Shown here: positions 7,965 through 29,667 of the stretch, one piece after another
Layout: every line of letters begins with the position of its first letter
Position numbering within the stretch: position 1 is the stretch's first letter
Source: Phycisphaerae bacterium
GTDB lineage: Bacteria > Planctomycetota > Phycisphaerae > Sedimentisphaerales > Anaerobacaceae
DNA length: 41,106 nucleotides
NCBI GenBank assembly: GCA_029858035.1
Contig: JAOUFU010000001.1
Span: 1 to 41,106, forward strand
Reading direction: 5' to 3'
Position numbers and translations under genes: made by a program
The notes under the pieces: generated by a model
The model's database searches: none
What the model was told of the DNA's origin: nothing
What the model saw: the letters and a program-made list of their open reading frames with translations, nothing else

Positions 7965-7989
7965 TAATCATTGAAAGGAATTTTTGAGG

Positions 7990-8949
7990 ATGTTAGAAAG
8001 GATTCCTAAAGTAGTTGTGGTTGGTGGCACATATGTTGATATGGCAATAAAGTGTCGCCAAATCCCACCTCCGGGGCGGAGCGTTTCCGGCTCTGCTCTC
8101 TCATATACAACCACTGGACCAGGGCCAAACCAAGCGATGGAAGCCGCCCTGTGTGGCTGCGAGGTGTATCTCATCAGCAAGGTCGGCGGCGATACATTTG
8201 CTCAGATGGCCAAGGAAACTCTGGCGGAGTTCAACGTTAATATTGACTTCGTCTATAGCGCCGAAGCCAAGAATACAGGCGTCATCGTAACGCTGGTCAA
8301 TTCCGCAGGTGAGAACGCCAGTTGTGTATATACGGGTGCCAATAGTGCTTTACGTTCACAGGAAATCAATGCGGCGGAGCAGGTTATATCGGAGGCTGAT
8401 GTTTGCCTAGTTCACGGCAGATTGCCGCATAAAGCGATTGTAAGAGCGATTCGTTGCGCAAAACTGCACAATACGAAGATAATTCTCAACCCTGCGAGAC
8501 CTATCGAGCAGCCCAACCAAACGAGCGGCGAGTTACCCATTGAGTATTTCTCAGTTGACATCCTTATCCCCAATCTTTATGAGGCAGCTGATATCACCGA
8601 TCAATCTGATGCAGGCATCCGAACGGCAAAGCTGATCGGAAGTGATCTGGTAGCTAGGGGCGTTAACTGCGCGGTTATCACTATGGGTAAGCGCGGCTGT
8701 ATGGTTGTTGACAGAAGTAGTGCTGACCACATCCCTGCTTTTGAAGTTGAACTTGTTGACCAAACCTGCAGAGGGGATGCCTTTGCCGGAGCACTTGCCG
8801 CTTATTGCGCCGTAAAGGACGATGTTAGAGAAGCAGTAAAATTCGCCTCTGCAGCGGGAGCATTGGCCTGTACGAAATTCGGCTCAACAGAAGCCCTGCC
8901 TACGAAAGCTGAGATTATTGAACTCCTGCAGAAAGAAGAAATGGGGTGA
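7990..8949 (+). CDS. PfkB-family carbohydrate kinase, ribokinase-like
   Basis: The protein is colinear with ribokinases over its whole length: VVVVGGTYVDM, NTGVIVTLVNSAGENASCVYTGANSAL, ILIPNLYEA, AVITMGKRGC, VDQTCRGDAFAGALAAY (catalytic GD motif) and FASAAGALACTKFGSTEALP. ATG 7990 is preferred over the TTG at 7984 used by the ORF track. Confidence 0.8.
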   Translation: MLERIPKVVVVGGTYVDMAIKCRQIPPPGRSVSGSALSYTTTGPGPNQAMEAALCGCEVYLISKVGGDTFAQMAKETLAEFNVNIDFVYSAEAKNTGVIVTLVNSAGENASCVYTGANSALRSQEINAAEQVISEADVCLVHGRLPHKAIVRAIRCAKLHNTKIILNPARPIEQPNQTSGELPIEYFSVDILIPNLYEAADITDQSDAGIRTAKLIGSDLVARGVNCAVITMGKRGCMVVDRSSADHIPAFEVELVDQTCRGDAFAGALAAYCAVKDDVREAVKFASAAGALACTKFGSTEALPTKAEIIELLQKEEMG

Positions 8950-10445: not shown

Positions 10446-10463
10446 TCAATCAAAAGCGCACAT
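10446..10463. repeat. Copy 1 of a perfect 18-bp direct repeat, TCAATCAAAAGCGCACAT
   Basis: Exact match to 10554-10571, with starts 108 bp apart. It lies in the 481-bp non-coding region between the divergent glycosidase and portal genes. Confidence 0.9.
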
Positions 10464-10553: not shown

Positions 10554-10571
10554 TCAATCAAAAGCGCACAT
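10554..10571. repeat. Copy 2 of a perfect 18-bp direct repeat, TCAATCAAAAGCGCACAT
   Basis: Exact match to 10446-10463. Confidence 0.9.
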
Positions 10572-10722
10572 ACCCAAAGACAAAATCAGGAAAAAACAAA
10601 TTTTTTTTACTCCTTTTCTCACATAGGCTTAGTGAAAACCGGCCGTCAAAAAACACTTAATTTTTCGTATCAAACGTGAACATTCGTGCATTTATAGAGA
10701 GACGTTGTTTTTTTGGTGATTT

Positions 10723-12294
10723 GTGAATTGGTGGGATTTAATTATGGGATTTGACCTTTGTATCTTTAAGGATGAGCAGTTCGGGGCGGATTACGTCGAG
10801 TGGCTCGTTGATGAACACTCGGTGGATATTCGGACACACTTTTCGAAGATGTGGGAATATTACGCAAACATCAGGCAGGAAGTAATCAGCGTTGACGGCC
10901 GACGGGATTCGACAAACGGGCGATGCTATGTGCAGGCACAGGAATATGGGCTGCCTCCCAGGATAACCGGGTTCGTGCATTCGGCAAATACAGGTGTTTT
11001 CGGTGGACGGCGAGTACGCGATGTGCAGCGAAAAGAGGTGGTGATTGAGAATGATATCGCGTGGCGAATAAACGCAGCGGTGGATTTTTTGTTCGGAAAA
11101 CCAGTTAGCTTTGTGTCCAAATCGCCGGATAGTCAAAAACAGGCAAGAATAGAATCCATATTGAAAGCAGTGTTTGGGGCTAACGGCGCTGTCGGATTTT
11201 TTCAGGATATGGCAGTGCTCGGAAGTGTTTATGGTTTCGTTGATTGCCTCGTTAGGCCCAGTGACGAGATCTTAGAAAGCATTTCCTCCTCCTCCCAACC
11301 TCCTTCATTTAAAGATGTGCTGCAATTGGCACGGACAATCGACCTGGAACTGATTGAAGCACCGAGAGCACTGCCTGTTCTGGAAGAAAACGACTATAAA
11401 AAAATCAGATATTACGTGCAGCACTTTTACCAGAGGAGAAACGCCTTGAGCAGGAAAAACACTTTTCTTGCGAAACTGCTGTCGCCGAGCAGAAGGAACA
11501 GCGATAGCCGGCAAGTAATTGCGGTGACGGAGATTACTTCGGCCTTGGCCTGGCAGAGGTATGAGGACAAACAGATCGTTGCCGAGAGCGAATTGCCGTG
11601 GGGATTTTTGCCGGTAGTGCATATCCAGAACATCGCCCAGCCATACTATTACGAGGGCCTGAGCGATGTCGAGTCGCTGATATCGCTACAGGATGAGCTT
11701 AATACCAGGTTGAGCGACAGGGCGAGCAGAATTACGTTCCAGGCATTTAAGATGTATCTTGGCAAAGGGATAGAGGGCTTTGAGGACAGGCCGGTATCGC
11801 CAGGCAGGATGTGGTACACCGACAATCCGGAGGCGGCTATTGAAGAATTCGGGGGAGATGAGGCAACGCCAAGCGAGGATTTGCATATTGCTGAGATTAG
11901 AGAGGCAATGGATAAGACAAGCGGGGTCTCGCCGGTGGTGGCGGGGGTTTTGAAGAATAAACTTGGCAATCTTACAAGTGCTGTGGCCCTTAGGCTGACG
12001 TTCATGGGGATGCTCTCGAAGAATGAACGAAAGAGATTTACTTATACCGAAGGTCTGAAAAAAATCGCACAGATGGTTCTGACGATGCTCGATAGGGCCA
12101 ACATCTACAAAACCAGCAAGGCGGATAGAGAGATCGACATTATTTTCCCCAGTCCTCTGCCTGAGAATATGATGGAGAAGCTAAAGGAGGCGCAAATTAA
12201 AAAAGAATTAGGTGTTCCGACAGAGCAGGTGCTCAGAGAGTTAGGTTACGATACCATGAATGAGAGAGAAAATTCTTATCAGGAGGTCTTATGA
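10723..12294 (+). CDS. Phage portal protein (SPP1 gp6-like class)
   Basis: 523 aa. N-terminal MWEYYANIRQ..., then KEVVIENDIAWRINAAVDFLFGKPVSFVS, which follows the pattern of the conserved portal N-terminal segment (N-x-I...V-x-x-L-x-G-K-P-V). The size, and the position directly upstream of scaffold and capsid genes, fit a portal. An alternative ATG start lies at 10744. Confidence 0.72.
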   Translation: MNWWDLIMGFDLCIFKDEQFGADYVEWLVDEHSVDIRTHFSKMWEYYANIRQEVISVDGRRDSTNGRCYVQAQEYGLPPRITGFVHSANTGVFGGRRVRDVQRKEVVIENDIAWRINAAVDFLFGKPVSFVSKSPDSQKQARIESILKAVFGANGAVGFFQDMAVLGSVYGFVDCLVRPSDEILESISSSSQPPSFKDVLQLARTIDLELIEAPRALPVLEENDYKKIRYYVQHFYQRRNALSRKNTFLAKLLSPSRRNSDSRQVIAVTEITSALAWQRYEDKQIVAESELPWGFLPVVHIQNIAQPYYYEGLSDVESLISLQDELNTRLSDRASRITFQAFKMYLGKGIEGFEDRPVSPGRMWYTDNPEAAIEEFGGDEATPSEDLHIAEIREAMDKTSGVSPVVAGVLKNKLGNLTSAVALRLTFMGMLSKNERKRFTYTEGLKKIAQMVLTMLDRANIYKTSKADREIDIIFPSPLPENMMEKLKEAQIKKELGVPTEQVLRELGYDTMNERENSYQEVL

Positions 12295-12815
12295 ATCCGA
12301 GTGAGGCTCAGGACATTTTGTCAGCAGACACAGTAGGACACGGCGACGATGACAACTTGAAACTTGTTCCAGTATCCGAATCCATCCACTATCGGAAAAG
12401 GGCACAGAGTGCCGAGAAAAAAATCGAAGTTTTGGCTGAACAATTAGCTGAGGCAAAAGCGGAGGCCAAAAAGACGGCCAAACAGTTGGGCTGCATCCAG
12501 GTCGAGCAAAAGCTGGTTCGTGAATTAGCTGCTGCCGGGACTGTTGATCTGGAGACGGCTGTGTTGATTGCCAAAGCCAGAATGGAAGGGGAAACCGAAG
12601 CGGACATTGATAGTGTTATAAGGCAGTTGAAAAAGGAAAAACAATATCTGTTTGCAAGTGCCAACAGAACTGTGATGGCGACAAAGACTGCAGGGGCTAA
12701 GGAGCGAATGGAGGGCAACCAGACGGTTCTTGAAAGAGCGGCCAAGAAGGCGGCGACAACTGGTAACCGAACAGACTTGCAGGAGTATTTGAAGCTGCGA
12801 AGGAATTTTATTTGA
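12291..12815 (+). CDS. Phage scaffolding-like coiled-coil protein
   Basis: 174 aa, helical and charged (RKRAQSAEKKIEVLAEQLAEAKAEAKKTAKQL). It sits between the portal and capsid genes. The ATGA overlap with the portal stop, with AGGAGG 5 nt upstream, indicates translational coupling. Confidence 0.55.
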   Translation: MNPSEAQDILSADTVGHGDDDNLKLVPVSESIHYRKRAQSAEKKIEVLAEQLAEAKAEAKKTAKQLGCIQVEQKLVRELAAAGTVDLETAVLIAKARMEGETEADIDSVIRQLKKEKQYLFASANRTVMATKTAGAKERMEGNQTVLERAAKKAATTGNRTDLQEYLKLRRNFI

Positions 12816-12827
12816 TTGGCTAAAATG

Positions 12828-12845
12828 ACCAGCGAATTCGCTGGT
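12828..12845 (+). promoter_or_regulatory. Perfect palindromic stem-loop between the scaffold and capsid genes
   Basis: ACCAGCGAATTCGCTGGT forms a 7-bp stem with a 4-nt loop. It lies 13 nt after the scaffold stop and 23 nt before the capsid ATG. Confidence 0.5.
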
Positions 12846-12868
12846 TATAAACGAAAGGAGAGAAATAT

Positions 12869-14023
12869 ATGGCTTTTACAGGAAAAGCAACTTATTCAGC
12901 GGGTACGACATTGCCGGAATTGGCCGAAGATGTATCGGATTTGATCGGGATAATCTCGCCCTATGAGACGCCTTTGCTGGATGCTTTGGGGGATCCGATG
13001 CGAGAGGCAACAAGCACACATCACGAATGGATCGAGGATGAACTTTTGCCTAATAGGGATGCTGTTAACGACAGCACCTTTACTGATCCGGCAGCTGACA
13101 CCGATTTTGTGGTTGATAATGGCAGCAGGTTCCGTGTGGGTGACCAGATTCAGGTCGAAGGAGCGGAGGAACTAATGCTTGTCACCAGTATCAACGGCGA
13201 TACGCTGACAGTAGTTCGCGGCTATGCGGGCACTACATCGGAAGACCTTGCCGATAACCAGGTAATTAACATTCTGGGAAATGCAGCTCTTGAGGGTGAC
13301 AACAAGCCCGACGCGAGGTTTACCAATCGAAGCAGATGTGGGAATTACACCCAGATATTTACCGCTGCGGTTGAAGTGAGCGGAACCGACATTGCTGCGA
13401 GCCAACTGGGACTGGCTGATGAGTTGGATTTTCAAAAGCAGGAACGGCTGCGGGAGTTGATTCGCGATCTGGAAAATACGGTTATCAACGGTGGACAGCC
13501 GACCGGCAGTCCTGAAGGTAGCAGCTCTGTAAGGAGGTCGATGAAGGGAATTATTCAGCACATTTCAACGAATGTTTTCCATACCGGTGATAGCGGTTTC
13601 CCGAGTGGTACCGACCTTGATGAGACAAAGGTAAATTACGTGCTCAGGAAGATATGGGAGAACAGTAACGGCAATGTGGACTTGATTGTCGTGGGCGGTT
13701 TTCAGAAGCGAAAGATAAACGCGTTCTGCGCAGACAGCCGAACCTACGCGGCTAACGATACGACTTTCACCAATATGGTTAGTGTTTACGAAAGCGATTT
13801 CGGCATCTGCAGAATTGTTACTTCAAGGTGGATACCACAGGACGGAGTTTTGTTCCTGGATTCATCGAGGCTTAGCGTGCTGCCTTTGGCGGGACGAGGT
13901 TTCCATTTCAAACCTTTGGCAAGCAGTGGTGACTATGAGTGCGGCGAGCTGATTGGCGAATATACCCTGGAGCTCAAGAACGAAATGGCACATGGACTTA
14001 TTCGCGATCTAAGTATCAGCTAA
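12869..14023 (+). CDS. Major capsid protein, HK97-fold, SU10/DUF5309-like type
   Basis: 384 aa with RBS AAAGGAGA. The N-terminus (TTLPELAEDVSDLIGIISPYETPLLDALGD...HEWIEDELLP) matches my recollection of the SU10-type coat-protein N-terminus. The size and the position after the scaffold are typical of a coat protein. Confidence 0.72.
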   Translation: MAFTGKATYSAGTTLPELAEDVSDLIGIISPYETPLLDALGDPMREATSTHHEWIEDELLPNRDAVNDSTFTDPAADTDFVVDNGSRFRVGDQIQVEGAEELMLVTSINGDTLTVVRGYAGTTSEDLADNQVINILGNAALEGDNKPDARFTNRSRCGNYTQIFTAAVEVSGTDIAASQLGLADELDFQKQERLRELIRDLENTVINGGQPTGSPEGSSSVRRSMKGIIQHISTNVFHTGDSGFPSGTDLDETKVNYVLRKIWENSNGNVDLIVVGGFQKRKINAFCADSRTYAANDTTFTNMVSVYESDFGICRIVTSRWIPQDGVLFLDSSRLSVLPLAGRGFHFKPLASSGDYECGELIGEYTLELKNEMAHGLIRDLSIS

Positions 14024-14076
14024 ACAGTATGGGTCTATATCGGGCGCAATCCTGATAGGTCGGAGCGTCCTGTGTG

Positions 14077-14109
14077 GGTGCCCAAAGGAGAAACAATTCT
14101 TTGGGCACC
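14077..14109 (+). promoter_or_regulatory. Strong stem-loop immediately downstream of the capsid gene (attenuator or mRNA-stabiliser candidate)
   Basis: GGTGCCCAAAG-gagaaacaatt-CTTTGGGCACC gives an 11-bp perfect stem with an 11-nt loop. No U-tract follows. Confidence 0.55.
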
Positions 14110-14146
14110 TGACCGGCCCGGTTACACGAGAAAGGGACTAAAGAAA

Positions 14147-14803
14147 ATGGTTAGTTTTTCAAGCGATGTGGACATTTTGAGATACGAGCCGGTACTGTTC
14201 GGAGAATTACACCTGCCCGGGCAGGTATTGGCGACAGGAACGGGCGGGACACTCAGCGGGACGACATTTACTGCAAGTGGAGCAGATTTTGTAAGTGCGC
14301 AGGTCTCAGCAGGCGGAGTTGTATATATGCATACTGCAGATGGTTCGCTGGATGGGGCGTATGAGATAGTTTTTTTGGATTCATCGACACAGCTCAGCGT
14401 TTCAGTAATCAGGTCGGATTCAGATGCTGCTGCTGTAGCGCCGCCGTCTGCTACAGGTATATTTTACCGCGTCAGCACATTTGTGCCACAGGCCGGAGAA
14501 GTTGGTTTTCGGTTGACAGAACACTTTGGTATTAAGCCGGGCAATCCTGCAAGCATCTATGATGCTGATGATGTTCTGGATACAGATGTATTGAAAAGGG
14601 CATCGGTCTTTGGAGTCATCTCAAGTGTATATGCAATGTTAGCCAGCAAGGCCAAAGATGAGAATTTCTGGAAGAAGAGTCTGCATTATCAGAAACTTTT
14701 TGAGAGGGCAAAAGAGCGGTGTCGACTTAGTATTGACATCGGCTCAGATGGAGTGGCTGATGTCACCAGAGTGGGAGCGTTTGTAAGGTTGGTCCGGGAT
14801 TAG
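14147..14803 (+). CDS. Hypothetical virion protein (occupies the position of a head-tail adaptor or head-completion protein)
   Basis: 218 aa from ATG 14147 (MVSFSSDVDILRYEPVLFGEL...). The ORF-track GTG start at 14072 lies inside the hairpin and is unlikely. I recognise no family. Confidence 0.45.
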   Translation: MVSFSSDVDILRYEPVLFGELHLPGQVLATGTGGTLSGTTFTASGADFVSAQVSAGGVVYMHTADGSLDGAYEIVFLDSSTQLSVSVIRSDSDAAAVAPPSATGIFYRVSTFVPQAGEVGFRLTEHFGIKPGNPASIYDADDVLDTDVLKRASVFGVISSVYAMLASKAKDENFWKKSLHYQKLFERAKERCRLSIDIGSDGVADVTRVGAFVRLVRD

Positions 14804-14821
14804 TTAGCGAAAGGAAGGCAA

Positions 14822-15193
14822 ATGAGTGCTGCTTTGGATGGGCAAAGTTTGTTTGATAGTCAGCAGTTAGAGATTGAATTGGGCAGTATTAGTCGTGATT
14901 CGATAGAAAGAGCGGTGCCGGGACTGGACGGCGTGCTCAGTGTTGATCTGGGGGGGCGCAGCAGGAAGATAAGACAGAAATGTGTGCTACGGGCGAAAAG
15001 CCGATCTCAAATGGATGAGAGAATCAGCGCAATATCGGCCTTTATGGATGGCAATACACATACGCTAATGACCAACGGCGGTAAGGAGTTTGAAAATCTG
15101 CGGATGGATGTTTTCAAGGTGAGCAAAGAGCGAGCGGGCGGTGGTGGTATAGTTATCGATTATGAAATCGTTTATACACAGTTAAAGGTTTAG
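14822..15193 (+). CDS. Hypothetical small virion protein
   Basis: 123 aa with RBS AAAGGAAGG. The segment ERAVPGLDGVLSVDLGGRSRKIRQKCVLRAKS...GNTHTLMTNGGKEF loosely recalls N-terminal domains of Mu-type tail or baseplate proteins. This is a weak impression only. Confidence 0.4.
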   Translation: MSAALDGQSLFDSQQLEIELGSISRDSIERAVPGLDGVLSVDLGGRSRKIRQKCVLRAKSRSQMDERISAISAFMDGNTHTLMTNGGKEFENLRMDVFKVSKERAGGGGIVIDYEIVYTQLKV

Positions 15194-15198
15194 CAATA

Positions 15199-15975
15199 AT
15201 GGTACTTACCAGCAGTGGGATAGACAACATAAGGGTGTTTGAGTTGCCCTGTGGTATTTGGGCTGACGGTGAGTCCGTTGGAAGCCCACGGACAGCTTTA
15301 GTAAAGTGGCGGTCTGTTTGGGCTGACAAGTTTTATCAGATTTATGTCAACGGCCAATATGCAGGGGCGACGGTTGACAGTCAGCAAAGGCAAATGATTG
15401 TTCAGATACCAACCTCTTTAGAGTCGCCGGTTCGGATTGAGGTCTTTGCCATCGAGGCGGAACAAGCAACGACTGATTTTAGCAGTGAGATTGAATCGTC
15501 AATTGGACAGAGCGGCCGAGTTAGGATCAGTATGCTGCGTTGTCAGAGTTTGCCGATTAGTGCAATTGCTCAAGTCTACTTTGACAACGGTACGGGTGAA
15601 ATCGATTATGACAAGGCGCTCAATGATTCGCCGATTAGAATCTGGCCTACCCGCCAGGATAAAGCAGGATTTGGTATGAGCAGGTTCGGCATTAGTGATT
15701 TCGGTTATGACTCGGCGGCGGCGGTAGGGTTTGGAAAGGGTGGATTTGGTTATGGTCAGTTTGGTCTTGACGCTGATTCGTTAGAGTGGATAAGCCCAGC
15801 GATGCGCGCGGGCATTTACAAATATGCCATCAAGGTTACTGACGAGGTGGGCAATGAAAGCGGCGGCAGCGAGACGGACCAAGTCGTAGTGATACCAGCA
15901 GCAAGGCCAGCTGAGAAGATAAACATTTCTTCGTTTAATAAGCAGACGAACCAATTAGTGTTGGGTATCTCGTAA
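15199..15975 (+). CDS. FN3/Ig-like virion protein with an FG-dipeptide-rich insert
   Basis: 258 aa. Contains VYFDNGTGEIDYDKAL and GIYKYAIKVTDEVGNES, a beta-sandwich module paralogous to ORF 19062..19748. The insert is GFGMSRFGISDFGYDSAAAVGFGKGGFGYGQFG (nt 15667-15765). Confidence 0.5.
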   Translation: MVLTSSGIDNIRVFELPCGIWADGESVGSPRTALVKWRSVWADKFYQIYVNGQYAGATVDSQQRQMIVQIPTSLESPVRIEVFAIEAEQATTDFSSEIESSIGQSGRVRISMLRCQSLPISAIAQVYFDNGTGEIDYDKALNDSPIRIWPTRQDKAGFGMSRFGISDFGYDSAAAVGFGKGGFGYGQFGLDADSLEWISPAMRAGIYKYAIKVTDEVGNESGGSETDQVVVIPAARPAEKINISSFNKQTNQLVLGIS

Positions 15976-15996
15976 GAGGACAGCAAGGAGAGCATT

Positions 15997-16785
15997 ATGA
16001 GTGAAGTGTATCCATCTGATAATGAATTGTTAAACATACAATCTGACAGTGAGACTGGTGTTGAATATATTCCTACCGGTACATCGCCATATTATTTACA
16101 GTTTCGAAAATTGCTGTATCGACTATTGCTTGCTGCACGGCGGGCGAACGATTTGCGGGTTTACGACGATGGCGGACTGGATATTGGTGTAAAGGCTGGT
16201 AAGTTTTGGCTGGGTACGGAGCAAGTGAGCTATAACGGTTCTTCCGGAAATACACTGGCAGATGATAAGGAAAATATTTACGTGTATCTGGATTCGGCTG
16301 GCAATCTCGTCAGCAACGAATACAACAGCTTCCCTGATATGGTGACCACGCCTCATATACGCTTGTCGAATGTAAGCACGTCAGATGGGGATATCGAGTC
16401 AATAACCGATTGTCGCATGGGTCATAATTTTGTGATGCCGTATGAGGCTGGTGGTGTGAAAAAGACGATTGAGGCGCATACTGCTGATGATACACTGACA
16501 GTGGAGGAATCCGGCAGTGTTCATACGAATCTTGGTGCTACAGCAACGGTTACACTTACGCTGCCGGCATCGGCGCCGGAAGGTACGATATTTAACTTCG
16601 CGGTCCAGGCAGTACAGGAACTGCGAGTTGACCCGGGCACCGCGGCCATTCGGGACGACAGTGGTCAGACCGTTGGCAAATACAAGGCAGCAGATGCGAT
16701 TGGTGAATGTTTAATACTGATTGCTGATTCGAACAGTGATTGGGCCACTATTGCCAAGCACGGCACCTGGACAGAGGAAGCATAA
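15997..16785 (+). CDS. Hypothetical tail/fibre-like protein
   Basis: 262 aa with RBS AAGGAGAG. The composition is beta-rich and S/T/G/D-rich (LGATATVTLTLPASAPEGTIFNF...). No family recognised. Confidence 0.4.
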   Translation: MSEVYPSDNELLNIQSDSETGVEYIPTGTSPYYLQFRKLLYRLLLAARRANDLRVYDDGGLDIGVKAGKFWLGTEQVSYNGSSGNTLADDKENIYVYLDSAGNLVSNEYNSFPDMVTTPHIRLSNVSTSDGDIESITDCRMGHNFVMPYEAGGVKKTIEAHTADDTLTVEESGSVHTNLGATATVTLTLPASAPEGTIFNFAVQAVQELRVDPGTAAIRDDSGQTVGKYKAADAIGECLILIADSNSDWATIAKHGTWTEEA

Positions 16786-16795
16786 GAGCAGAGAA

Positions 16796-17113
16796 ATGAG
16801 AAATCATCCGCTATACCAAAAGCTAAAGCAAATAGCAATTGATAGAAATTACACCCTCGAGCAGGTGCAATTTTTAAGTTTTGCTCAGGCAACAACTTTA
16901 CTGGGTGAAAGACCTGCGAGCACCACTTTTCTTGAGAACATGAAACAGGACATAATTATGGAACTGTGGGATCGCGACGATGAGGCCAACCTGCAGCAAG
17001 TAAGGCAGAAGATTAAAACCTGGCTCGATGCCAATTTCCCTAATTGGGCAGACGAATGGGACAGGGAGGGCGGCAAACCATGTATAAAACTATGGCTGAA
17101 AGGTAAACCTTGA
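16796..17113 (+). CDS. Hypothetical small acidic helical protein
   Basis: 105 aa from ATG 16796 (MRNHPLYQKLKQIAIDRNYTLEQVQ...). The longer ORF-track start at 16721 would overlap the preceding gene by 65 nt. Confidence 0.4.
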   Translation: MRNHPLYQKLKQIAIDRNYTLEQVQFLSFAQATTLLGERPASTTFLENMKQDIIMELWDRDDEANLQQVRQKIKTWLDANFPNWADEWDREGGKPCIKLWLKGKP

Positions 17114-17114
17114 T

Positions 17115-18605
17115 ATGGGGAATATATGGTCGACAAATGAATCCGTTTTTTTTGTTGGCGGACGCGGCACGAAAGCCGGTGACGCCAATGCCGGCGGCGG
17201 CTGCACAAAGGATGTATGGGGCGATTTGAAATCGCCTAACTTGTCGCTTTCAGATGTAATGGGGACAAATGGAGAGCCGGTTTCTGACCCGTCTGCCTGG
17301 AACGGCTCTGCAACGGCTTGTACTGTTACTCAGAGTTCGGCTGGTAAGCTACTTATAACTAAGACGGGGGCTTTTACCAACGTTATTGCAGAACTCATCG
17401 CTAATGTAAATTTTTCGTCTGTCTATGGTGATGGCCGGTTCAGGGTAAACGCTGCACAATTAACCCCTAATACGATTGAAATCGAATATCCTTACTCTGT
17501 GGATAATACCTGTGACGTAAAAGTAGGCGGTGCTTTTGATAAACTACAGACGGCTTTGGATAATACGACAGCCGACCAGACATCCTATAACGATGTTAAT
17601 ATCCTGACAAATAAATCAATGACATTTTCAGGGACGGGAGACCGAATAGACATTGATGCAGGCGGAGGTAATGGCAACGCTGGCACCTGGAAACGTATAA
17701 TAGGCATTGACGATAATGGAGTAGAGCTTGCTGCTGGTTCTTACGTCCAGTTTGATGCTAACGGTTATGCCTGCCATGTGTTTAAGGTTTTGAATGTTCA
17801 TTGTATTGAGTTTAGACATATCTGTGTTAGCGATGCTGCTAATACCCACTATGGTTTTTATATTACGGCTACAGGCTATTACCAAGGCTTCTTATTGAAA
17901 GACTGTAAGTCTACAGGCTGTAAGTATGGGGTGTATAGCGATACTTTCTATATTAGAGGACTGATCATAATGGGTGGTTACTACAGTTCAGCTACAGGTC
18001 CCGCTCTTTGCTTTCAAGCTTGTCGATGGGTTAATGTATTAGGGGTTGAGTTAGTGGGAAGTTTGGCAGGAGCGTTGATAGACGGGGATGTGATAGGGAC
18101 GTTGCTTGTTGACGGCTGTGTCCTTCGTAAGACAGGCAACTACAGCTTAGGTATACACTCTAACAATTGGGACACTTTTCTTGTTATACGCAACTGTGTG
18201 TTTTATGACATTGATGATTGTATAAAGCTGAATGATGCCGAGTCCCGACTGGTTCAGCACAACAACATTTTCTTATTGCACACTGCCGCCACAGGTGAGG
18301 TCATAAATAGAGTAGCGGGCAGTATTATGTATAGCGATTACAGTTGTGCCTGGGCGATTGATGGAGAACCAATGGCTTCCGGTCGTTGGGGAGGAAATGG
18401 TCTGCCGGAACATGCTATTGAACAAGATCCTCAATTCGTGGATGCGGATAATGGTGATTTCAGGCCACGGAATCAAAATGTTTTGCGAGGAGGCAAGCCT
18501 GATATAGCTGACAATGAAACTGAGATGGGGGCTATTTTGCAGAAATACCAGTTTGCAAGGCGGGCAAAAGCGGCGAATTTTGGCAGGCTGCAAATCATGC
18601 GATAG
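17115..18605 (+). CDS. Right-handed parallel beta-helix protein, tailspike/depolymerase-like
   Basis: 496 aa with repetitive G/N/C-containing coils (CIEFRHICVSDA..., GFLLKDCKSTGCKYGVYSD..., FLVIRNCVFYDIDDCIKLND...). The C-terminal EQDPQFVDADNGDFRPRNQNVLRGG is the ending typical of Beta_helix/pectate-lyase-fold proteins. Confidence 0.6.
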   Translation: MGNIWSTNESVFFVGGRGTKAGDANAGGGCTKDVWGDLKSPNLSLSDVMGTNGEPVSDPSAWNGSATACTVTQSSAGKLLITKTGAFTNVIAELIANVNFSSVYGDGRFRVNAAQLTPNTIEIEYPYSVDNTCDVKVGGAFDKLQTALDNTTADQTSYNDVNILTNKSMTFSGTGDRIDIDAGGGNGNAGTWKRIIGIDDNGVELAAGSYVQFDANGYACHVFKVLNVHCIEFRHICVSDAANTHYGFYITATGYYQGFLLKDCKSTGCKYGVYSDTFYIRGLIIMGGYYSSATGPALCFQACRWVNVLGVELVGSLAGALIDGDVIGTLLVDGCVLRKTGNYSLGIHSNNWDTFLVIRNCVFYDIDDCIKLNDAESRLVQHNNIFLLHTAATGEVINRVAGSIMYSDYSCAWAIDGEPMASGRWGGNGLPEHAIEQDPQFVDADNGDFRPRNQNVLRGGKPDIADNETEMGAILQKYQFARRAKAANFGRLQIMR

Positions 18606-18615
18606 GAGTTAAACA

Positions 18616-19059
18616 ATGGCAAATACCGCGATCGAAATACCTTTTTATGTTTCAAATGATGGAGAGCCACTCACTGGTGCAGCAGCCCAAATGGACTTTG
18701 AAAGCTTAAAGACATTGGCAGGTACCGACAAGTCGGGCAGCGCCCCGACAATTGGCGAAATCGGCGACGGCTGGTATAAGTTCAGCGTTGCGTACGGAAC
18801 GGCACCGTTTGATTCAGGCGATCTTGTGGGGGTTGTAGACGCCGACAAAAATGGGAATAACAACTTGGCTAATGCTGAGCGATATATTCCTATAGAGGTT
18901 CGGTTGGATTTTTACGCATTGATGCGGTTGGTCAATAAAATGAGCCAGAACAAGACAACGGGTGATATGGCTATAAAAGATTCTACCGGCAACACGATTT
19001 TGGAGTTGAGTATTGCTGATGGCGAGAACACCTTGGACCGAGAACCTGGGATTGCTTGA
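18616..19059 (+). CDS. Hypothetical virion protein
   Basis: 147 aa with RBS TAGGAG. No family recognised. Confidence 0.4.
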   Translation: MANTAIEIPFYVSNDGEPLTGAAAQMDFESLKTLAGTDKSGSAPTIGEIGDGWYKFSVAYGTAPFDSGDLVGVVDADKNGNNNLANAERYIPIEVRLDFYALMRLVNKMSQNKTTGDMAIKDSTGNTILELSIADGENTLDREPGIA

Positions 19060-19061
19060 TA

Positions 19062-19748
19062 ATGGATGCTAAATTTTTCGAAAGTTTATATGAAGGTGAC
19101 TCGGCAGATGGTGTCAAAGTTGGGATGGGCTTGACCGGAGGGGATTTTTGGCCTCGCATAGCCGGTTGCTCTATGCTCTATCGTGGGACCGCCATGAACC
19201 TGATAGATTTTACGAACATACTGGCCGTGTCTGAGGCAGAGGCTTCTGAAATTTCGCCGCCAATTTATGCTTCACACGATAATGGGTCGATATATTTCTA
19301 CGTTATTCGTCGGGCCAATAATTTCGGCCGTGAAGAACGTACTTTAGCTGCTGCGGTCAAGGTTTCAATAGATGCCAGTGGTGATCTGGCGCAGCCGCAG
19401 CCCAATAGTGTTTTCGAGACAGGAGCCGAGCAGGTGGATGGCAGTAAAGTACAGCTTGTCTGGTATTATTGCCCCATCGAACAACAGTCACCACCGGTGT
19501 GTTTCAATGTTTATTATGATGCTGGTACAGGGCAAATCGATTATGAAGACCCAATTGCTACGATTAGCTATGTCGGCCGGATGTTTTACATTTATAAAAG
19601 TGGTCCACTCAACACCGGCAAATATCTGTTTGCCATAAGGGTTGAAGATTCTGCTGGAATGGAAAATGCTTCATTGGCCCGGATAAAGATCGAGCTTAAT
19701 ATCGCAAGTCCCGGTGTTATCAATATTCTTAGCGCCAAAGCGGTTTAA
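19062..19748 (+). CDS. FN3/Ig-like virion protein, paralogous module to ORF 15199..15975
   Basis: 228 aa from ATG 19062. Contains VYYDAGTGQIDYEDPIA and GKYLFAIRVEDSAGMEN, which mirror VYFDNGTGEIDYDKAL and GIYKYAIKVTDEVGNES. Confidence 0.5.
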   Translation: MDAKFFESLYEGDSADGVKVGMGLTGGDFWPRIAGCSMLYRGTAMNLIDFTNILAVSEAEASEISPPIYASHDNGSIYFYVIRRANNFGREERTLAAAVKVSIDASGDLAQPQPNSVFETGAEQVDGSKVQLVWYYCPIEQQSPPVCFNVYYDAGTGQIDYEDPIATISYVGRMFYIYKSGPLNTGKYLFAIRVEDSAGMENASLARIKIELNIASPGVINILSAKAV

Positions 19749-19830
19749 TGAGAAACATGAATGAAACTGTGGCTTGACTTCCGTGACATGGGGCACAAGC
19801 TACAAAGTTACGAATCACGAGATACAAGGT

Positions 19831-21669
19831 ATGTCTAACAGGATTGACTTTTTCCAGTCAACTCAAACGCAAATGGTGCTTCCCGCGTCTTCTGTATCGA
19901 TTTTAGTCGGCGGTAAGTTGTGTCCTTTTCTTGAGCCAATAGAAATTGTGCGCAGTGGTTGGCCGGAGTTTAGCTGGGCCAGATTAGCTTATAATCCTGC
20001 TGCGTACGCGAACGCCGACACGGTCGTTGCTGAAGATATTGAGACCGAACTTGCAATGGGAGAGCACGTTTGCATCCAGCAAATTTATAACGGTATCCCG
20101 CCGGGCGCGGCAGCTTTTGCATTATCACTTTTTGAGGGGCAAATAGAGGGCATAGAGACAGAGATTGTGCCTAACGGCGAAAGGGTTGAAATCGTTGTGA
20201 AAGATTTTAGCGCAAACCTGAAACGCATCACCGTCTATGGCCGGCGAGTCGACGATTCAGACGGCACGAGTTTGTTTTTGGCTGGTATTGATACCGTATT
20301 TAATCCTGATGGCAAGACCAATGCCAATCCGGAGCCGATACAAGTTAACGGCAAGAGCTATACAGTTTTTTGTGCCGAACCGTCTCAAGGCTGGCCTTGG
20401 AGCTCCGCGGAGGTGATTGATTACCTTCTCTGTGAATATTTGCCGGGCGGCCAATTGCAGACGCCGGGAATTGAGCAGCTGCGGGCGCTGACCGAGAACC
20501 AAACAGTTCGAGATCTTGATGTGACCGGTTTGAATCTGATAGAAGCTCTGCATCGTTGCTGCGAGAGGATTGGCTTAAGATTCAAATTTGTTCCCCGGCC
20601 TGTGCCGACCGGCCCCGGCCAGGCGATTGTGTTCTATAAGGGTGGTACTGGCAGAGCAGTCGAGTTAAATTGTCAGCGTACTGGTGAGCAGTTTAGCATA
20701 TCAAAAACAAATATCGCAACTTTGAGCAGGAGGGGAAATTTTTGGCCGGTGACACATAAATATATAGGCCAGGGTGATTTCAAAGTTTATGAAGGGACCT
20801 TCGAACTGGTAAAGGCTTGGGATACTGCTGATGAGGATACCGATTATGATAAGTTCTCTCCTTCGACAAACCCTGATTTTCACCAGGCCAAGGATGTATA
20901 TCGTAAGTGGTGCCTCAATGAAGCAAGCGACTATAGCGGTGCTCCATACAATCAGGGTAATGCATTTGATTTTTCAAAGGTTTTCGGGAGTGGGAATTTT
21001 ATGTGCCGTCGCAGGCGCTTTTGGCCGGCCCTCACCACTGACAAACAGGGCAGGTCGCTGGGCTATTTTTTACAGGTATCGTTCGATAACGGCTTGCATT
21101 GGTGGCAGTACCTTTATGCTTTCAATAACCTGCTCGATGAATGTGGAGTTTGGCTTAGCAGTGACCGGCTTGATGTTAACACTTGGATAGCAGCTCTGAA
21201 GGGCGTTTTGAAGTTCAGAATAACTGCATCAGTTGTCAGCGATGAGAGATTAAATTGTTTGTTAGCAGACGGCCCTGTCGGCTCAACAGCACCTGTGGTT
21301 GAGCATATAATTACCCTGCCTCGTCAGTTCAAGTATCGCAAGATATCAGGCCGAAGTATCTTTGCAAATATCAACGATGATGCGCTGGGCGCTCCGGATG
21401 AGGTGGATGATTCTACTGCGTTATATGAATTAGTGCGGAAAAGAGCCCAGACTGGTTCTGAGGTTATCCAGATAACATCTGTGCAGACGCCGCACCTGGT
21501 CTTTGATTATAGAGTTGGCGACAGGGTGATGTCCAGCCCTGAGAGTAGAGATCTGTTGGGTTGTAAGAGTGATAACCGAAGTACAAGCTGGATAGAGCGG
21601 GTGCAGATGGATTTTACAAAGCAGTGTACGAATTTAAAAATCGTTCGTAAAAGGATACCACAGTTATGA
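19831..21669 (+). CDS. Large hypothetical tail protein (hub or nozzle candidate)
   Basis: 612 aa from ATG 19831 (MSNRIDFFQST...); the ORF track starts at TTG 19774. It is the largest product of the cluster. The segment LFEGQIEGIETEIVPNGERVEIVVKDFSANLKRITVYGR weakly recalls gpD/Mu gp44-type hub proteins. No P-loop is present. Confidence 0.4.
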   Translation: MSNRIDFFQSTQTQMVLPASSVSILVGGKLCPFLEPIEIVRSGWPEFSWARLAYNPAAYANADTVVAEDIETELAMGEHVCIQQIYNGIPPGAAAFALSLFEGQIEGIETEIVPNGERVEIVVKDFSANLKRITVYGRRVDDSDGTSLFLAGIDTVFNPDGKTNANPEPIQVNGKSYTVFCAEPSQGWPWSSAEVIDYLLCEYLPGGQLQTPGIEQLRALTENQTVRDLDVTGLNLIEALHRCCERIGLRFKFVPRPVPTGPGQAIVFYKGGTGRAVELNCQRTGEQFSISKTNIATLSRRGNFWPVTHKYIGQGDFKVYEGTFELVKAWDTADEDTDYDKFSPSTNPDFHQAKDVYRKWCLNEASDYSGAPYNQGNAFDFSKVFGSGNFMCRRRRFWPALTTDKQGRSLGYFLQVSFDNGLHWWQYLYAFNNLLDECGVWLSSDRLDVNTWIAALKGVLKFRITASVVSDERLNCLLADGPVGSTAPVVEHIITLPRQFKYRKISGRSIFANINDDALGAPDEVDDSTALYELVRKRAQTGSEVIQITSVQTPHLVFDYRVGDRVMSSPESRDLLGCKSDNRSTSWIERVQMDFTKQCTNLKIVRKRIPQL

Positions 21670-22001
21670 GTAATGGACGGGAGAACACAAGCAACCGAGA
21701 GCTATTGGAAAGGTTAGCCAGAGAAGGTACCCAGGCTGAGCGGGAAGTATCTATTGTTACCTCACCCGGCGCCAGAGAGTCCGGCTGGGCGATTAAAGTG
21801 AAGAGTCATAGCTCCTACAATGTCTATAACGTCATCGCTGTTGAGATAGGAGATGCAGGCTCACTGCCGGTCGAAATCGGCCAGCAGATGCAGGCGGTCA
21901 ATCTTGCTGAGTCGTTTCTTCAGGCGGGAACGCTGTCGGCGGGGACGTATGCGGTAATGCTTAGGGTCGGTGATAAGAACGTTTTCTATGCTGAGCCGTG
22001 A
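21666..22001 (+). CDS. Hypothetical small protein
   Basis: 111 aa, with an ATGA overlap with the preceding stop codon. Confidence 0.4.
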   Translation: MSNGRENTSNRELLERLAREGTQAEREVSIVTSPGARESGWAIKVKSHSSYNVYNVIAVEIGDAGSLPVEIGQQMQAVNLAESFLQAGTLSAGTYAVMLRVGDKNVFYAEP

Positions 22002-22419
22002 AATTGGAGATGACAGACGTGAGACAAAAGATGAGGGACGTTTATCTGAACCTGTGCCATTAGGACAAATCCTTCCAGAAGTCATGAGAAATATAAAGGA
22101 ACGAGTTGAAGCTAATAGCGAAATGAATGATGCCAAATTTGAAAAGCCACGAGGCTGGGAGTTTAATAGGCAGATAAATGTCTCTGTGCTGGTTCAGTTG
22201 GTTTTTCTTGGATCTTTGATTGTGGGTAGCTGGGTCAATCTGCAGAGACAACTTGACCTGTTACAGCACGATGTGACGTATCTGTGTCAGTGCCAAAAGA
22301 ATTTTGATGTAAAACTGGAGTCGCTTTCGGCAACGAGCATTTCCTACGAATACCGCCTTCGTGCACTCGAGAAATATTCTTCTAAGGCCGATATCGCGGA
22401 TGGATATTTAAGACCTTGA
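21988..22419 (+). CDS. Membrane-anchored coiled-coil protein, last gene of the cluster
   Basis: 143 aa from ATG 21988. It has a single hydrophobic span (VSVLVQLVFLGSLIVGSWVNL) followed by a heptad-like segment (QRQLDLLQHDVTYL...LRALEK). Confidence 0.4.
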   Translation: MLSREIGDDRRETKDEGRLSEPVPLGQILPEVMRNIKERVEANSEMNDAKFEKPRGWEFNRQINVSVLVQLVFLGSLIVGSWVNLQRQLDLLQHDVTYLCQCQKNFDVKLESLSATSISYEYRLRALEKYSSKADIADGYLRP

Positions 22420-22530
22420 TTGGTAAGGAGAACCAACAGCCATTGTTACTATTGGCAAATCGGAAAGAAAGTGAAAGGTGCTATCGCGTTGATATAGCAG
22501 ATTTACACGATCATACGTGTGATTAATTGT

Positions 22531-26998: not shown

Positions 26999-28486
26999 TT
27001 AGAGGGGAATTTTTGTTTCTCTTACCTGCTTTGCAGGTGCTTTCTCTACATCCACTATATCTATTGCTGATTTGGGACGTGCTTGTTTTGGGCATTCACC
27101 AGTCCAGCAATACAGACAGAGTTTCTCTTTGGGCAACCCAATAGCCTGAACCATATCATCCACATCTTGATATCTAAGCGTGGAGACATCTAAATCCTTC
27201 TTAATCCATTCAACCATCCTTTTGTATTTTCCGCTGTTTGTGTCAATATATTTTGACACATTTTTTAGGTCATGGCCTTCCAGACTGCGAATGGCTTTGC
27301 GGGCGGCAAGTTCATGGGTGGAGCGTGTGGAAAGGTTGAACCGGCATGGAAACATCAGTGGTGGGCAGGCGGGTCTTACGTGTATTTCCTTGGCGCCGCA
27401 ATCCCAGAGTTTCTTTATGGTGAAGTTCTTAAGCTGCGTTCCCCTCACGATAGAATCTTCGCAAACAACAATGCTGTTGCCCTTAATGACCTCTTCAATG
27501 GGGATGAGTTTCATCTTTGCAATGAGGTCGCGTGTCTGTTGTGAAGGTGGCGTATAACTTCTGCCGTATCCCGGCGTATATTTCACAAGTGGCCGTCTAA
27601 ATGGCTTCCCGGATTCCATCGCATACCCTAATCCGTGCGCAGCACCGGAGTCAGGAACACCTGAGACCACGTCGACATTAATGTCCTTGTCACGTTTTGC
27701 AAGGCAGCGGCCACATCTTTCCCTGACAATTTCTACGTTTATTCCTTCATAGCTTGACGCGGGAAAGCCGGTATATATCCATAGAAATGCACAAATTTGG
27801 TTTATGTTTCCTTTACTTGCTCTTCTTTGCACTATGCCATCTTCATTGATCAGGATTATTTCTCCCGGCTCGAGGTATTTTGTTATCTCGAAGTCATTAT
27901 TTGGAAAAGCGCAGGTCTCACTCGTGACCGCCCATGCATCTTCCCGCTTGCCTGTGATAAGTGGCGTATATCCAAATCTGTCTCTTGCCGCATATATGCC
28001 GGCTCGGTTGAGCAGCAGAAGTGAGCAGGAGCCCTCTATAGCATCAAACATTTTCTCTATGCCGTCTACGAGGTCGTTTCCCTGGCTGATTAGTTTTGCA
28101 ATCAGCTCGGTAGCATTAACCGCTTTTTTGCTTACCTCGCTGAAGGAGATTCCTTTCTTTAACAGCTTTGCCGCTAACTCCTCGGTGTTTTCTATGATTC
28201 CGTTGGTGACTATGCAAAAAGGCCCGAATTTTGAGTTTAGATAAATAGGCTGTTCATCCGAGGCACTGATTACACCAATGCCCTTGTTGCCTTTCATGTG
28301 CTTATAGTCGTCATAAAATTTTGACTTGAACTGGCTCTGGCTCACGTCATGTATCTGGCGCGTGAAATCCTCTCCAAGCACCGCCAAACCTCCATATTCG
28401 GTTCCGAGATGCGAATGGTAATCTGTGCTGTAGAGAAGAGTTTCTGCGCAGTCACCCTTTGAGACCACTCCAAAGATGCCGCTCAT
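26999..28486 (-). CDS. PurF-like amidophosphoribosyltransferase paralog with a degenerate glutaminase active site
   Basis: 495 aa from ATG 28486-28484 (strong RBS AAGGAGGT 5 nt upstream); the ORF-track start at 28558 is an upstream extension. The N-terminus is MSGIFGVV, with AGC Ser where class-II amidotransferases have the nucleophile Cys. The PRTase motifs are intact: VSGVPDSGAAHGLGYA and IVVCEDSIVRGTQ. Confidence 0.75.
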   Translation of the reverse strand: MSGIFGVVSKGDCAETLLYSTDYHSHLGTEYGGLAVLGEDFTRQIHDVSQSQFKSKFYDDYKHMKGNKGIGVISASDEQPIYLNSKFGPFCIVTNGIIENTEELAAKLLKKGISFSEVSKKAVNATELIAKLISQGNDLVDGIEKMFDAIEGSCSLLLLNRAGIYAARDRFGYTPLITGKREDAWAVTSETCAFPNNDFEITKYLEPGEIILINEDGIVQRRASKGNINQICAFLWIYTGFPASSYEGINVEIVRERCGRCLAKRDKDINVDVVSGVPDSGAAHGLGYAMESGKPFRRPLVKYTPGYGRSYTPPSQQTRDLIAKMKLIPIEEVIKGNSIVVCEDSIVRGTQLKNFTIKKLWDCGAKEIHVRPACPPLMFPCRFNLSTRSTHELAARKAIRSLEGHDLKNVSKYIDTNSGKYKRMVEWIKKDLDVSTLRYQDVDDMVQAIGLPKEKLCLYCWTGECPKQARPKSAIDIVDVEKAPAKQVRETKIPL

Positions 28487-28575
28487 ATTTACCTCCTTTG
28501 TGATATGTGATTTTCGTTCAGAGTGCTTAGCGACGCTGCTAAGCCATGTAATTGCCACATTTTGTCATCCATAAG

Positions 28576-29649: not shown

Positions 29650-29667
29650 TTCGCTTTAAGAGTTATG

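Follow-up and report, generated by a model that had tools for sequence, protein, structure and literature searches.

The window, as we call the whole 41,106-nt stretch of contig JAOUFU010000001.1 analysed here, represents nearly all of a 44.7-kb metagenome contig (ENA k141_115412) and contains an 11.7-kb operon of phage-like structural genes. With a probability of roughly 0.65, we read this operon as the head and tail half of an ancient, chromosomally fixed, phage-derived particle system of a large Sedimentisphaerales clade, similar in kind to gene transfer agents (GTAs) or to the PBSX particles of Bacillus. Comparison with relatives showed the operon to be vertically inherited and held under purifying selection, and to possess a conserved, predicted promoter region of its own. 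The first-pass annotation of the window had proposed a domesticated or helper-dependent particle-forming system, as opposed to a normal or decaying prophage. The domesticated part of that proposal gained strength, as the operon is syntenic and intact, evolves under purifying selection, and co-diverges with the neighbouring pfkB gene. The same is true of the suggestion that further functions may be encoded elsewhere, given the separate operon for TerS-like and TerL proteins (small and large terminase subunits) that was found in relatives. Helper dependence was unsupported, since the system encodes its own capsid, tail, and terminase.

A narrower reading, which we put forward tentatively and at somewhat less than even odds, is that of an independently evolved GTA-type system, the first for Planctomycetota, with an SU10-type head, a hub-bearing tail without a tape measure, and a split regulon under one motif. 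The split regulon, comprising the structural operon, the packaging operon, and stray members, belongs to this joint proposal and is equally tentative. To our knowledge, about five independent GTA lineages have been recognised, none of them in the Planctomycetota-Verrucomicrobiota-Chlamydiota (PVC) superphylum. Full-text literature searches on GTAs and prophages in Sedimentisphaerales and Planctomycetes turned up no account of an element like this one in Planctomycetota; what is called the "chronic phage" in strain ZRK32 was considered and rejected, being an unrelated, extrachromosomal element. The element is thus best described as an independently domesticated phage-particle system, which would become a strong candidate if particles can be demonstrated. 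If the reading is correct, this would be a new case of phage domestication, order-wide and maintained by selection, in abundant and mostly uncultured Planctomycetota of sediments and peat. It would also be a possible means by which genes are exchanged in anoxic sediments, with host DNA perhaps passing between cells in sediments and peat. Moreover, it would account for thousands of "prophage" or "viral" calls in metagenomes, considering the number of capsid homologs given below and the copy deposited in IMG/VR.

Distribution, inheritance and selection

The capsid protein had 4530 homologs in a large protein collection; the best 120 were all 86-100% identical and came mostly from metagenome-assembled genomes (MAGs) of Phycisphaerae/Sedimentisphaerales. 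A scan with one genome per GTDB species found a capsid relative in at least 578 genomes of Sedimentisphaerales/Phycisphaerae. The best 80 capsid loci (79-95% identity) each came from a separate assembly, five complete chromosomes among them; complete chromosomes bearing the cluster include CP070715.1, CP070675.1, CP070806.1, OY970194.1, and CP070830.1. The common architecture was [pfkB]-(GH5)-portal-scaffold-capsid-ORF4-ORF5-ORF6-ORF7-[variable cassette]-ORF11-ORF12-ORF13-ORF14-(f28)-SPL/lipoprotein-like gene. All 11 core genes were present in this order in 36 of the 39 species loci that span the whole cluster, and the remaining three lacked one small gene (tblastn).

Against ten relatives, dN/dS calculated by the Nei-Gojobori method was 0.03-0.33 across all 14 genes of the operon and 0.04-0.25 for the flanking pfkB, GH5, and SPL genes, with dS often near or at saturation in these comparisons. 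The first-pass annotation had named conserved synteny and dN/dS well below 1 as marks of a domesticated element, and both were observed. The capsid protein was better conserved than the product of the neighbouring pfkB (median identity 84% vs 77%). Pairwise divergence of portal and capsid tracked that of pfkB, with a Mantel r of 0.75-0.76 that was reached in 0 of 999 permutations. With GTAs, the operon therefore has in common that its phage-derived structural genes are a fixed part of the chromosome, pass on vertically, and evolve under purifying selection. As regards non-self-transmissibility, integrase and att sites are absent and the modules are split by cellular genes; because of this split and the missing integrase, the element does not appear to be a self-propagating virus.

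The pfkB-GH5-portal junction was found again in independent NCBI, ENA, and JGI assemblies, and the contig is therefore not chimeric at about 10.3-10.7 kb, an artefact that would have undermined the initial interpretation. In 32 loci, the flanks encode housekeeping enzymes (106 proteins), and no recurrent integrase or recombinase occurred among their listed families.

Several observations accompany these comparisons. For most genes of the cluster (10744-16785), dS between the closest relatives (L004, L010) was 0.10-0.38, lower than that of the adjacent pfkB (7984-8949; 0.49-0.55); recombination or sweeps within the cluster, or codon constraint, are possible causes. Three capsid genes in bin SM1_79 were considered as paralogous copies within one genome and rejected, as all three lie in the pfkB-GH5 context and are orthologs from a mixed bin. 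Some contigs with the cluster bear record names such as "Coxiella sp. DG_40", "Zixibacteria", "uncultured Pirellulales", and "Candidatus Aegiribacteria". These, like the SM1_79 triple, are probably mis-binned or mis-labelled MAG contigs.

Head and tail genes

The structural operon (10723-22419) consists of 14 intact ORFs, all on the + strand (Table 1). The public gene call on contig k141_115412 gives the identical 14, in line with the original description. The portal gene is better started at ATG 10744 (MGFDL...), which is conserved in related loci, than at 10723, where the mechanical ORF begins. The 481 bp previously reported as non-coding upstream of it are indeed non-coding, and extend to about 500 bp once the start is set at 10744. 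Instead of the four or more start/stop overlaps counted at first pass, three are certain (12291/12294, 21666/21669, and ORF13/ORF14, 21970 or 21988 vs 22001), and two more hinge on the choice of start codon.

Table 1. Features of the structural operon and its surroundings in the window, and components of the packaging operon of related genomes
Feature	Position	Strand	Remarks
Two perfect 18-nt direct repeats, TCAATCAAAAGCGCACAT	10446-10463, 10554-10571	+	candidate upstream regulator sites
Promoter-like motif, window copy	10659-10702	+	third site copy ATCAAACGTGAACAT at 10669-10683; -10-like TATAGA at 10693-10698
ORF1, portal protein	10744-12294	+	PF05133 7e-15; phrog_64 6e-26; median 74% identity in 65 species loci
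ORF2, scaffolding protein (coiled coil)	12291-12815	+	PF06810 1.9e-4, below cut-off; between portal and capsid genes
ORF3, major capsid protein, SU10/DUF5309 type	12869-14023	+	PF17236 SU10_MCP 5.5e-87; phrog_1328 4e-78
ORF4, conserved virion protein, possibly head-completion or adaptor	14072-14803	+	no family hit; 75 loci, median 70% identity; dN/dS 0.10-0.23
ORF5, conserved small virion protein	14822-15193	+	72 loci, median 65% identity; dN/dS 0.08-0.25
ORF6, conserved tail-module protein	15199-15975	+	paralog of ORF11 over shared motif (repeat comparison within window)
ORF7, conserved N-terminal anchor of tail spike/fibre	15997-16785	+	median 78% identity
ORF8-ORF10, variable receptor-binding cassette	16796-19059	+	105 aa; 496-aa beta-helix spike-like protein; 147 aa
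ORF11, conserved beta-rich tail protein	19062-19748	+	directly upstream of hub gene
ORF12, predicted tail hub protein (gp27 / Mu gp44 / VgrG-like N-terminal domain)	19831-21669	+	AF2 and Foldseek
ORF13, conserved small protein	21666-22001	+	43 loci, median 67% identity
ORF14, small protein, last operon gene	21988-22419	+	C-terminal ~90 residues conserved; no family hit
Terminator-like hairpin after operon	22503-22522	+	consensus scan only
f16, helix-turn-helix (HTH) protein, ~140 aa			sigma-70 region 4-like; weak Q-like and late-activator PHROG matches
f20, ABC-type P-loop ATPase, ~215 aa			phrog_293 1e-29
f23, GNAT-like protein, ~260 aa			
f29, ParB_N protein			
Variable slot of packaging operon			replication-initiator-like f56, DUF1376 f37, or HNH+AP2 f78
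f35, TerS-like protein			phrog_24579 4.7e-6
TerL			PF17289 above cut-off; phrog_2 2.8e-16

Family searches agreed with the first-pass assignments of the portal and of the SU10/DUF5309-type coat protein. ORF3 scored 292 bits against PF17236, for which the gathering cut-off is 24.1, and thus belongs to the SU10_MCP family. Its PDB sequence matches were phage capsid proteins (9ny2, 2e-21; SU10 7z45, 3.6e-6). The proposed scaffold fared less well. Its position between the portal and capsid genes stands, while the family match of the window copy is weak and below cut-off; on orthologs, PF06810 is unmarked. Family searches found no prohead protease in the operon. Most orthologs of ORF4 begin at an internal MVSFS..., which corresponds to position 14147 of the window.

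Among the tail genes, the earlier label of "FN3-like" for two proteins was not borne out: ORF6 and ORF11 had no family hit, and the two share a paralogous motif. A distant ORF6 homolog adjoins the hub gene in the IMG/VR phage contigs L180 and L181. ORF7 is in some genomes fused to a C-terminal tail-spike domain (f31; phrog_2234 1e-20), and ORF11 in many genomes carries a fused N-terminal LamG-like domain. The single-sequence AlphaFold2 (AF2) model of ORF11 was unusable (pLDDT 37). The cassette between ORF7 and ORF11 is replaced in most species by LamG-like proteins (f12/f60), a phrog_240 protein (f13), or others. For the beta-helix, tailspike-like protein of the first-pass annotation (ORF9), the matches were weak, namely DUF5123 at 9e-6 and a Beta_helix flagged as weak on an ortholog. 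ORF8 and ORF9 had saturated or high dS even among close relatives, a putative signature of receptor-binding diversification.

ORF12 is predicted to be a hub of the gp27/Mu gp44 type. Its AF2 model, built from a multiple sequence alignment of 41 sequences, had an overall pLDDT of 46, with about 60-80 for residues 20-280, and is usable in the N-terminal third only. A Foldseek search of this model against the PDB gave 12 matches with E ≤ 1e-3 (3e-6 to 1e-3), all of them tail or baseplate entries and mostly hub proteins. These include the tail of Haloferax virus HFTV1, the hubs of the antifeeding prophage (AFP), the Photorhabdus virulence cassette (also PVC) and extracellular contractile injection systems (eCIS), and entries from phi812, Mu (gp44), and MuSo2. 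T5 tail-tip chains stood just above E 1e-3. PDB profile and sequence searches were uninformative for ORF12, ORF9, and the 299-aa f28. Alignment of ORF12 with the 625-aa minor tail protein of a Bacillus phage (hhalign) gave no signal, and tblastn of ORF12 against 50,697 phage records gave no match.

ORF14 probably has a single hydrophobic, putative membrane-spanning segment, read by eye, and is holin-like by position only. No tape measure, tube, or sheath was recognised among the operon products. A short tail is plausible, whereas the label "podovirus-like" is not established, considering the hub protein ORF12 and a Bacillus phage relative with the gene order of a long tail. A podovirus-type tail would be short, made of adaptor and nozzle, and free of tape measure, tube, and hub; six products of the tail region had no assignment.

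No Walker A motif occurs in the 14 products, and tblastn with a related TerL found no match anywhere in the window, which agrees with the earlier view that neither a P-loop product nor a TerL candidate is present. Likewise, Pfam and PHROG searches of the window found no integrase, protease, or lysin, as had been stated. A terminase hidden among the 14 ORFs was considered and ruled out by the lack of Walker A, the lack of any Pfam or PHROG hit, and the hub fold of ORF12. There is no tRNA in the window, and no att-like flanking repeats were found around the operon.

These features set the operon apart from three familiar types of element. An intact temperate prophage would have integrase, att sites, lysogeny control, and replication and lysis modules contiguous with the structural genes, and these are lacking here. 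Tailocins and contractile injection systems consist of tail genes only; here, the portal, scaffold, and capsid genes are present and conserved. Capsid-forming satellites of the cf-PICI type do not match either, as the system has tail hub and spike genes, its own TerS/TerL, and no integrase.

A separate packaging operon in related genomes

Many relatives carry a second conserved operon (f16 to TerL in Table 1), which lies upstream of pfkB or of the portal gene and is divergent from the structural operon. The statement that the cluster lacks a terminase is thus true of the window locus but not of the system, since relatives possess an operon for TerS-like and TerL proteins, in many cases as the divergent neighbour of the portal operon. 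A structural cluster without a terminase can therefore be one half of a split system.

The TerL family had 1860 hits, of which the top 120 were 69-90% identical and about 500 aa long. The motifs WANRxGGKT, KLRCDE, DFGFxNPF, TFCDP, and DHPIDALRYFF were almost entirely ≥98% conserved in 124 aligned sequences. These are the predicted Walker A-like, Walker B, and nuclease motifs, and the enzyme would accordingly be catalytically intact. TerL matched annotated TerL proteins in 748 phage records, with 22-26% identity in the ten best. A metagenome scan yielded 562 TerL relatives, of which 80 loci were fetched, many with a contiguous six-gene operon (e.g. L170). Upstream sequence of 6 kb or more was available for 44 loci, and in 20 of these the regulator genes adjoin the structural operon.

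The two modules are unlinked in several lineages, since L122, L140, L158, and L168 carry the packaging operon and have no portal or capsid gene within the locus. In these four loci, homologs of a left-flank gene of the window (ORF 171-917, 72-73% identity) stand beside pfkB and the packaging operon. A homolog of the left-flank Hsp20 gene (66-68%) was also found in L122 and L140. It appears that the two modules were parted by a rearrangement around pfkB.

The TerS-like gene and TerL are separated, in about half of the TerL loci, by 5-9 kb of further genes on the same strand (including L094:3474-9908, L096:3946-9894, L118, L162, L111, and L125). The insert of L096 encodes a sulfatase, a 1116-aa FAD oxidoreductase, and a ferredoxin, and that of L094 encodes LamG and Big_1 proteins. 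This gap has the look of a hot spot for insertions within the packaging operon.

Promoter motif and regulation

A motif of ~45 nt with the consensus TTTTCGnATCAAACGTGCAGGTnnCTCCAATTATAGAG was located 40-170 nt upstream of the portal ATG. In an nhmmer profile search, all loci with a hit (55 sequences, the window and duplicate assemblies counted in) had it on the + strand ahead of the portal gene. The upstream half of the motif is repeated: the window has three copies of the site ATCAAA(A/C)G(C/T)G(C/A)ACAT, spaced by 108 bp and then by 112 bp to the promoter-proximal copy, and a phasing of ~99-113 bp recurs across related loci. Across 61 loci, the core TCAA[AT]N[GAC]NG[CA] showed ~10-fold enrichment (2.8 vs 0.29 per kb) over the 450 nt that precede the portal gene. 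A hairpin of variable sequence usually follows directly after the -10-like element (window 10695-10745) and may be a 5' leader structure; its mean z of -1.4 against shuffles, over ~50 loci, is suggestive only.

The same motif was found ~70 nt upstream of f23, the first gene of the f23-ParB-TerS...TerL operon, in L162 and L111. The structural and packaging modules would therefore belong to one regulon in at least some genomes. A regulon defined by a conserved promoter with phased sites is open to direct testing. The sole second copy of the motif at a structural locus was observed in L016 (545-941, - strand), where it precedes a paralog of ORF13 that stands alone, at a distance of ~7 kb from the portal operon, which suggests a dispersed regulon member. 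This paralog adjoins a gene read by eye as dxs.

Proposed mechanism and its weight

We propose that a small HTH protein resembling phage late activators would bind the phased ATCAAANGNGCA sites and switch on the portal operon and, in some genomes, the packaging operon as well. The portal, scaffold, and SU10-type capsid proteins would then form procapsids without a protease, into which TerS and TerL, presumably encoded elsewhere in the genome of the window, would pack DNA. A short, hub-bearing tail would be added, with spikes or fibres supplied by the rapidly swapped receptor-binding cassette. The particles might finally be released and serve the host as GTAs or as PBSX-like particles.

A number of points weigh against this interpretation. 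No TerL or packaging operon was found for the genome of the window, of which ~45 kb is covered, or for its closest relatives. Specifically, the window and the L003-L014 loci of its subclade, to which GCA_019456145.1 belongs, have no TerL/regulator operon within ~8 kb upstream of the portal gene, nor downstream within the stretch covered. TerL contigs L125 and L148 come from the same sample as the close relatives L005 and L008, which is an indirect hint only. The shared motif precedes the packaging operon in just 2 of 83 TerL loci, and the role of f16 as activator is a conjecture from fold class, position, and the analogy with phage late activators. For six core products, neither a fold nor a family could be recognised, and no lysis enzyme was identified. 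Truncated genes occur in a few lineages. Finally, the system is known here from its genes alone.

Alternative explanations

The alternative that survives best assumes the same genes and the same assembly, and holds that the product is a PBSX-like killer or defence particle that kills competitors or interferes with phages and delivers no usable DNA. We consider this unlikely. The fast turnover of the receptor-binding cassette is what an arms race would give, and a hint at conflict between phage and element comes from a 41-kb phage contig (L090/L097, IMGVR_UViG_3300033145_000895) with an extra capsid-like pair. Nevertheless, no toxin or lysin was recognised in the operon, and the intact nuclease and ATPase of TerL suit gene transfer equally well. 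Sequence cannot separate the two, as the packaged content, the delivery of DNA, and the benefit (gene exchange, killing, or defence) cannot be told from it.

The phage contig L090/L097 deserves a description of its own. Its canonical capsid gene follows TerL (L097:14827-15948; PDB 8h89, 5e-34). The extra pair (L090:7023-8183 / L097:18-1467) consists of a scaffold-like gene (92 aa) and a capsid-like gene, the product of the latter being 63% identical to the capsid of the element, and sits among early genes for RecT, a nuclease, and a methylase. A 480-aa protein of the same contig has an ORF7-like N-terminus. The extra pair could reflect phage-element conflict or recombination.

It is decidedly improbable that the lineage of the window lost its packaging operon and co-opted DNA-free shells or tailed particles for protein delivery, adhesion, or as decoys. 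The missing TerL/regulator operon around the portal gene in the window and L003-L014 would fit such a loss, as would the continued purifying selection on the structural genes there. However, the unlinked arrangement is common in lineages that do have TerL, the sample of L005 and L008 also contains the TerL contigs L125 and L148, and the portal gene has been kept intact.

It is very improbable that the element is a satellite dependent on a helper, or that it belongs to an active temperate phage family with site-specific integration beside pfkB. IMG/VR lists one copy as a viral contig, and the packaging operon retains ParB-like and replication-initiator-like genes. On the other hand, neither an integrase nor att repeats were found, the modules are interrupted and separated by various cellular genes, the divergence of the cluster follows that of pfkB, and the best 80 loci are all from different assemblies. 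With a capsid, a tail, and a terminase of its own, moreover, the element needs no helper. The IMG/VR copy is L091/L179 (IMGVR_UViG_3300031673_016560), in which the chromosomal element, including the SPL flank, is filed as a viral genome; copies of it will inflate prophage and virus counts in sediment metagenomes.

A functionless cryptic prophage remnant in which decay has not yet begun to show is scarcely credible and already contradicted: truncated portal, ORF7, or ORF12 genes in L036, L086, and L043 could be taken for its onset, yet 36 of 39 species loci retain every core gene in intact form, dN/dS lies far under 1 where dS is saturated, and the capsid protein is better conserved than the product of pfkB. 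In L036 (CP070830.1), a reduced genome of 2.67 Mb, ~300 residues are missing from the N-terminus of the portal protein. ORF7 and ORF12 are both cut short in L086, a frameshift interrupts the portal gene of L043, and L011 and L035 have the portal reading frame broken into two, though a single tblastn alignment spans the split; these truncations and frameshifts may include assembly errors. Decay is thus confined to rare lineages, and the block is not the pseudogenising remnant that the first-pass annotation had named as an outcome that would overturn its view. None of the outcomes that it had listed against its reading was observed. As a few lineages do show truncations, the system is dispensable. 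The pattern, as far as the genes indicate, is that of a domesticated, dispensable but selected element, and not of a mobile or decaying prophage.

Comparison with known systems

The GTA of Rhodobacter capsulatus (RcGTA; Alphaproteobacteria) is likewise a phage-derived head-tail operon fixed in the chromosome, inherited vertically over an order-level clade under purifying selection, with further genes at other loci. The two also share a dedicated activator-type promoter architecture, predicted in our case, and a hub-bearing tail with variable receptor-binding parts. There is no sequence relationship, however. The element has a SU10/DUF5309 capsid with a scaffold and no protease, whereas RcGTA is of the HK97 type with a protease; TerS and TerL lie outside the operon for head and tail, neither a tape measure nor a tube was recognised, the phylum is Planctomycetota, and the element is known so far from genes only. 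The hallmarks of RcGTA-like (type I) homology, i.e. an HK97 capsid with a protease, TerL beside the portal gene, and homologs of g2-g5, are not present.

The Bartonella GTA (BaGTA), which uses run-off replication, resembles the element in being a domesticated particle system that retains phage replication-type genes near the packaging genes; here, ParB-like and DnaD/O-like or DUF1376 genes stand beside TerS. The proteins are unrelated, and the replication-type slot of the element varies (f56, f37, f78). PBSX is a chromosomally fixed defective phage that forms tailed, DNA-containing particles from a late operon under a small dedicated regulator, a scheme similar to the one predicted for the element from its genes. 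PBSX is contiguous, with terminase beside portal, its own lysis cassette, and a contractile tail, in contrast to the split element with no recognised lysin.

Free phages with SU10/DUF5309 capsids, including Bacillus phage 268TH002, share the PF17236 capsid and an SPP1-type portal, with a scaffold between the two. These phages keep the order TerL-portal-scaffold-capsid, whereas the element has no integrase, lysis genes, or adjacent terminase. The nearest capsid and portal relatives among cultured phages in the collection searched were ≤31% identical. In Bacillus phage 268TH002, the one record inspected, TerL-portal-scaffold-capsid is followed by a major tail protein, a tape measure, and minor tail proteins, as expected for a tail that is long and non-contractile. 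In L180 and L181, whose capsid is of the HK97 type, ORF6, ORF7, ORF11, and ORF12 all have distant homologs.

Neighbouring genes

The cellular flanks were as first described (GH5 on the opposite strand; DUF523, radical SAM, and pur genes), and family searches agreed. To the left lie a BcrAD/BadFG-DUF2229 fusion, pfkB, and then the GH5 glycosidase gene on the opposite strand. To the right, the operon is followed by DUF523, an SPL-type radical-SAM enzyme, DUF503, two purF-like genes, purM, SurA, and others. The two purF-like genes (window 26999-31104, - strand) encode glutamine amidotransferases of 519 and 478 aa and are arranged around purM, with the phosphoribosyltransferase domain in the second one only.

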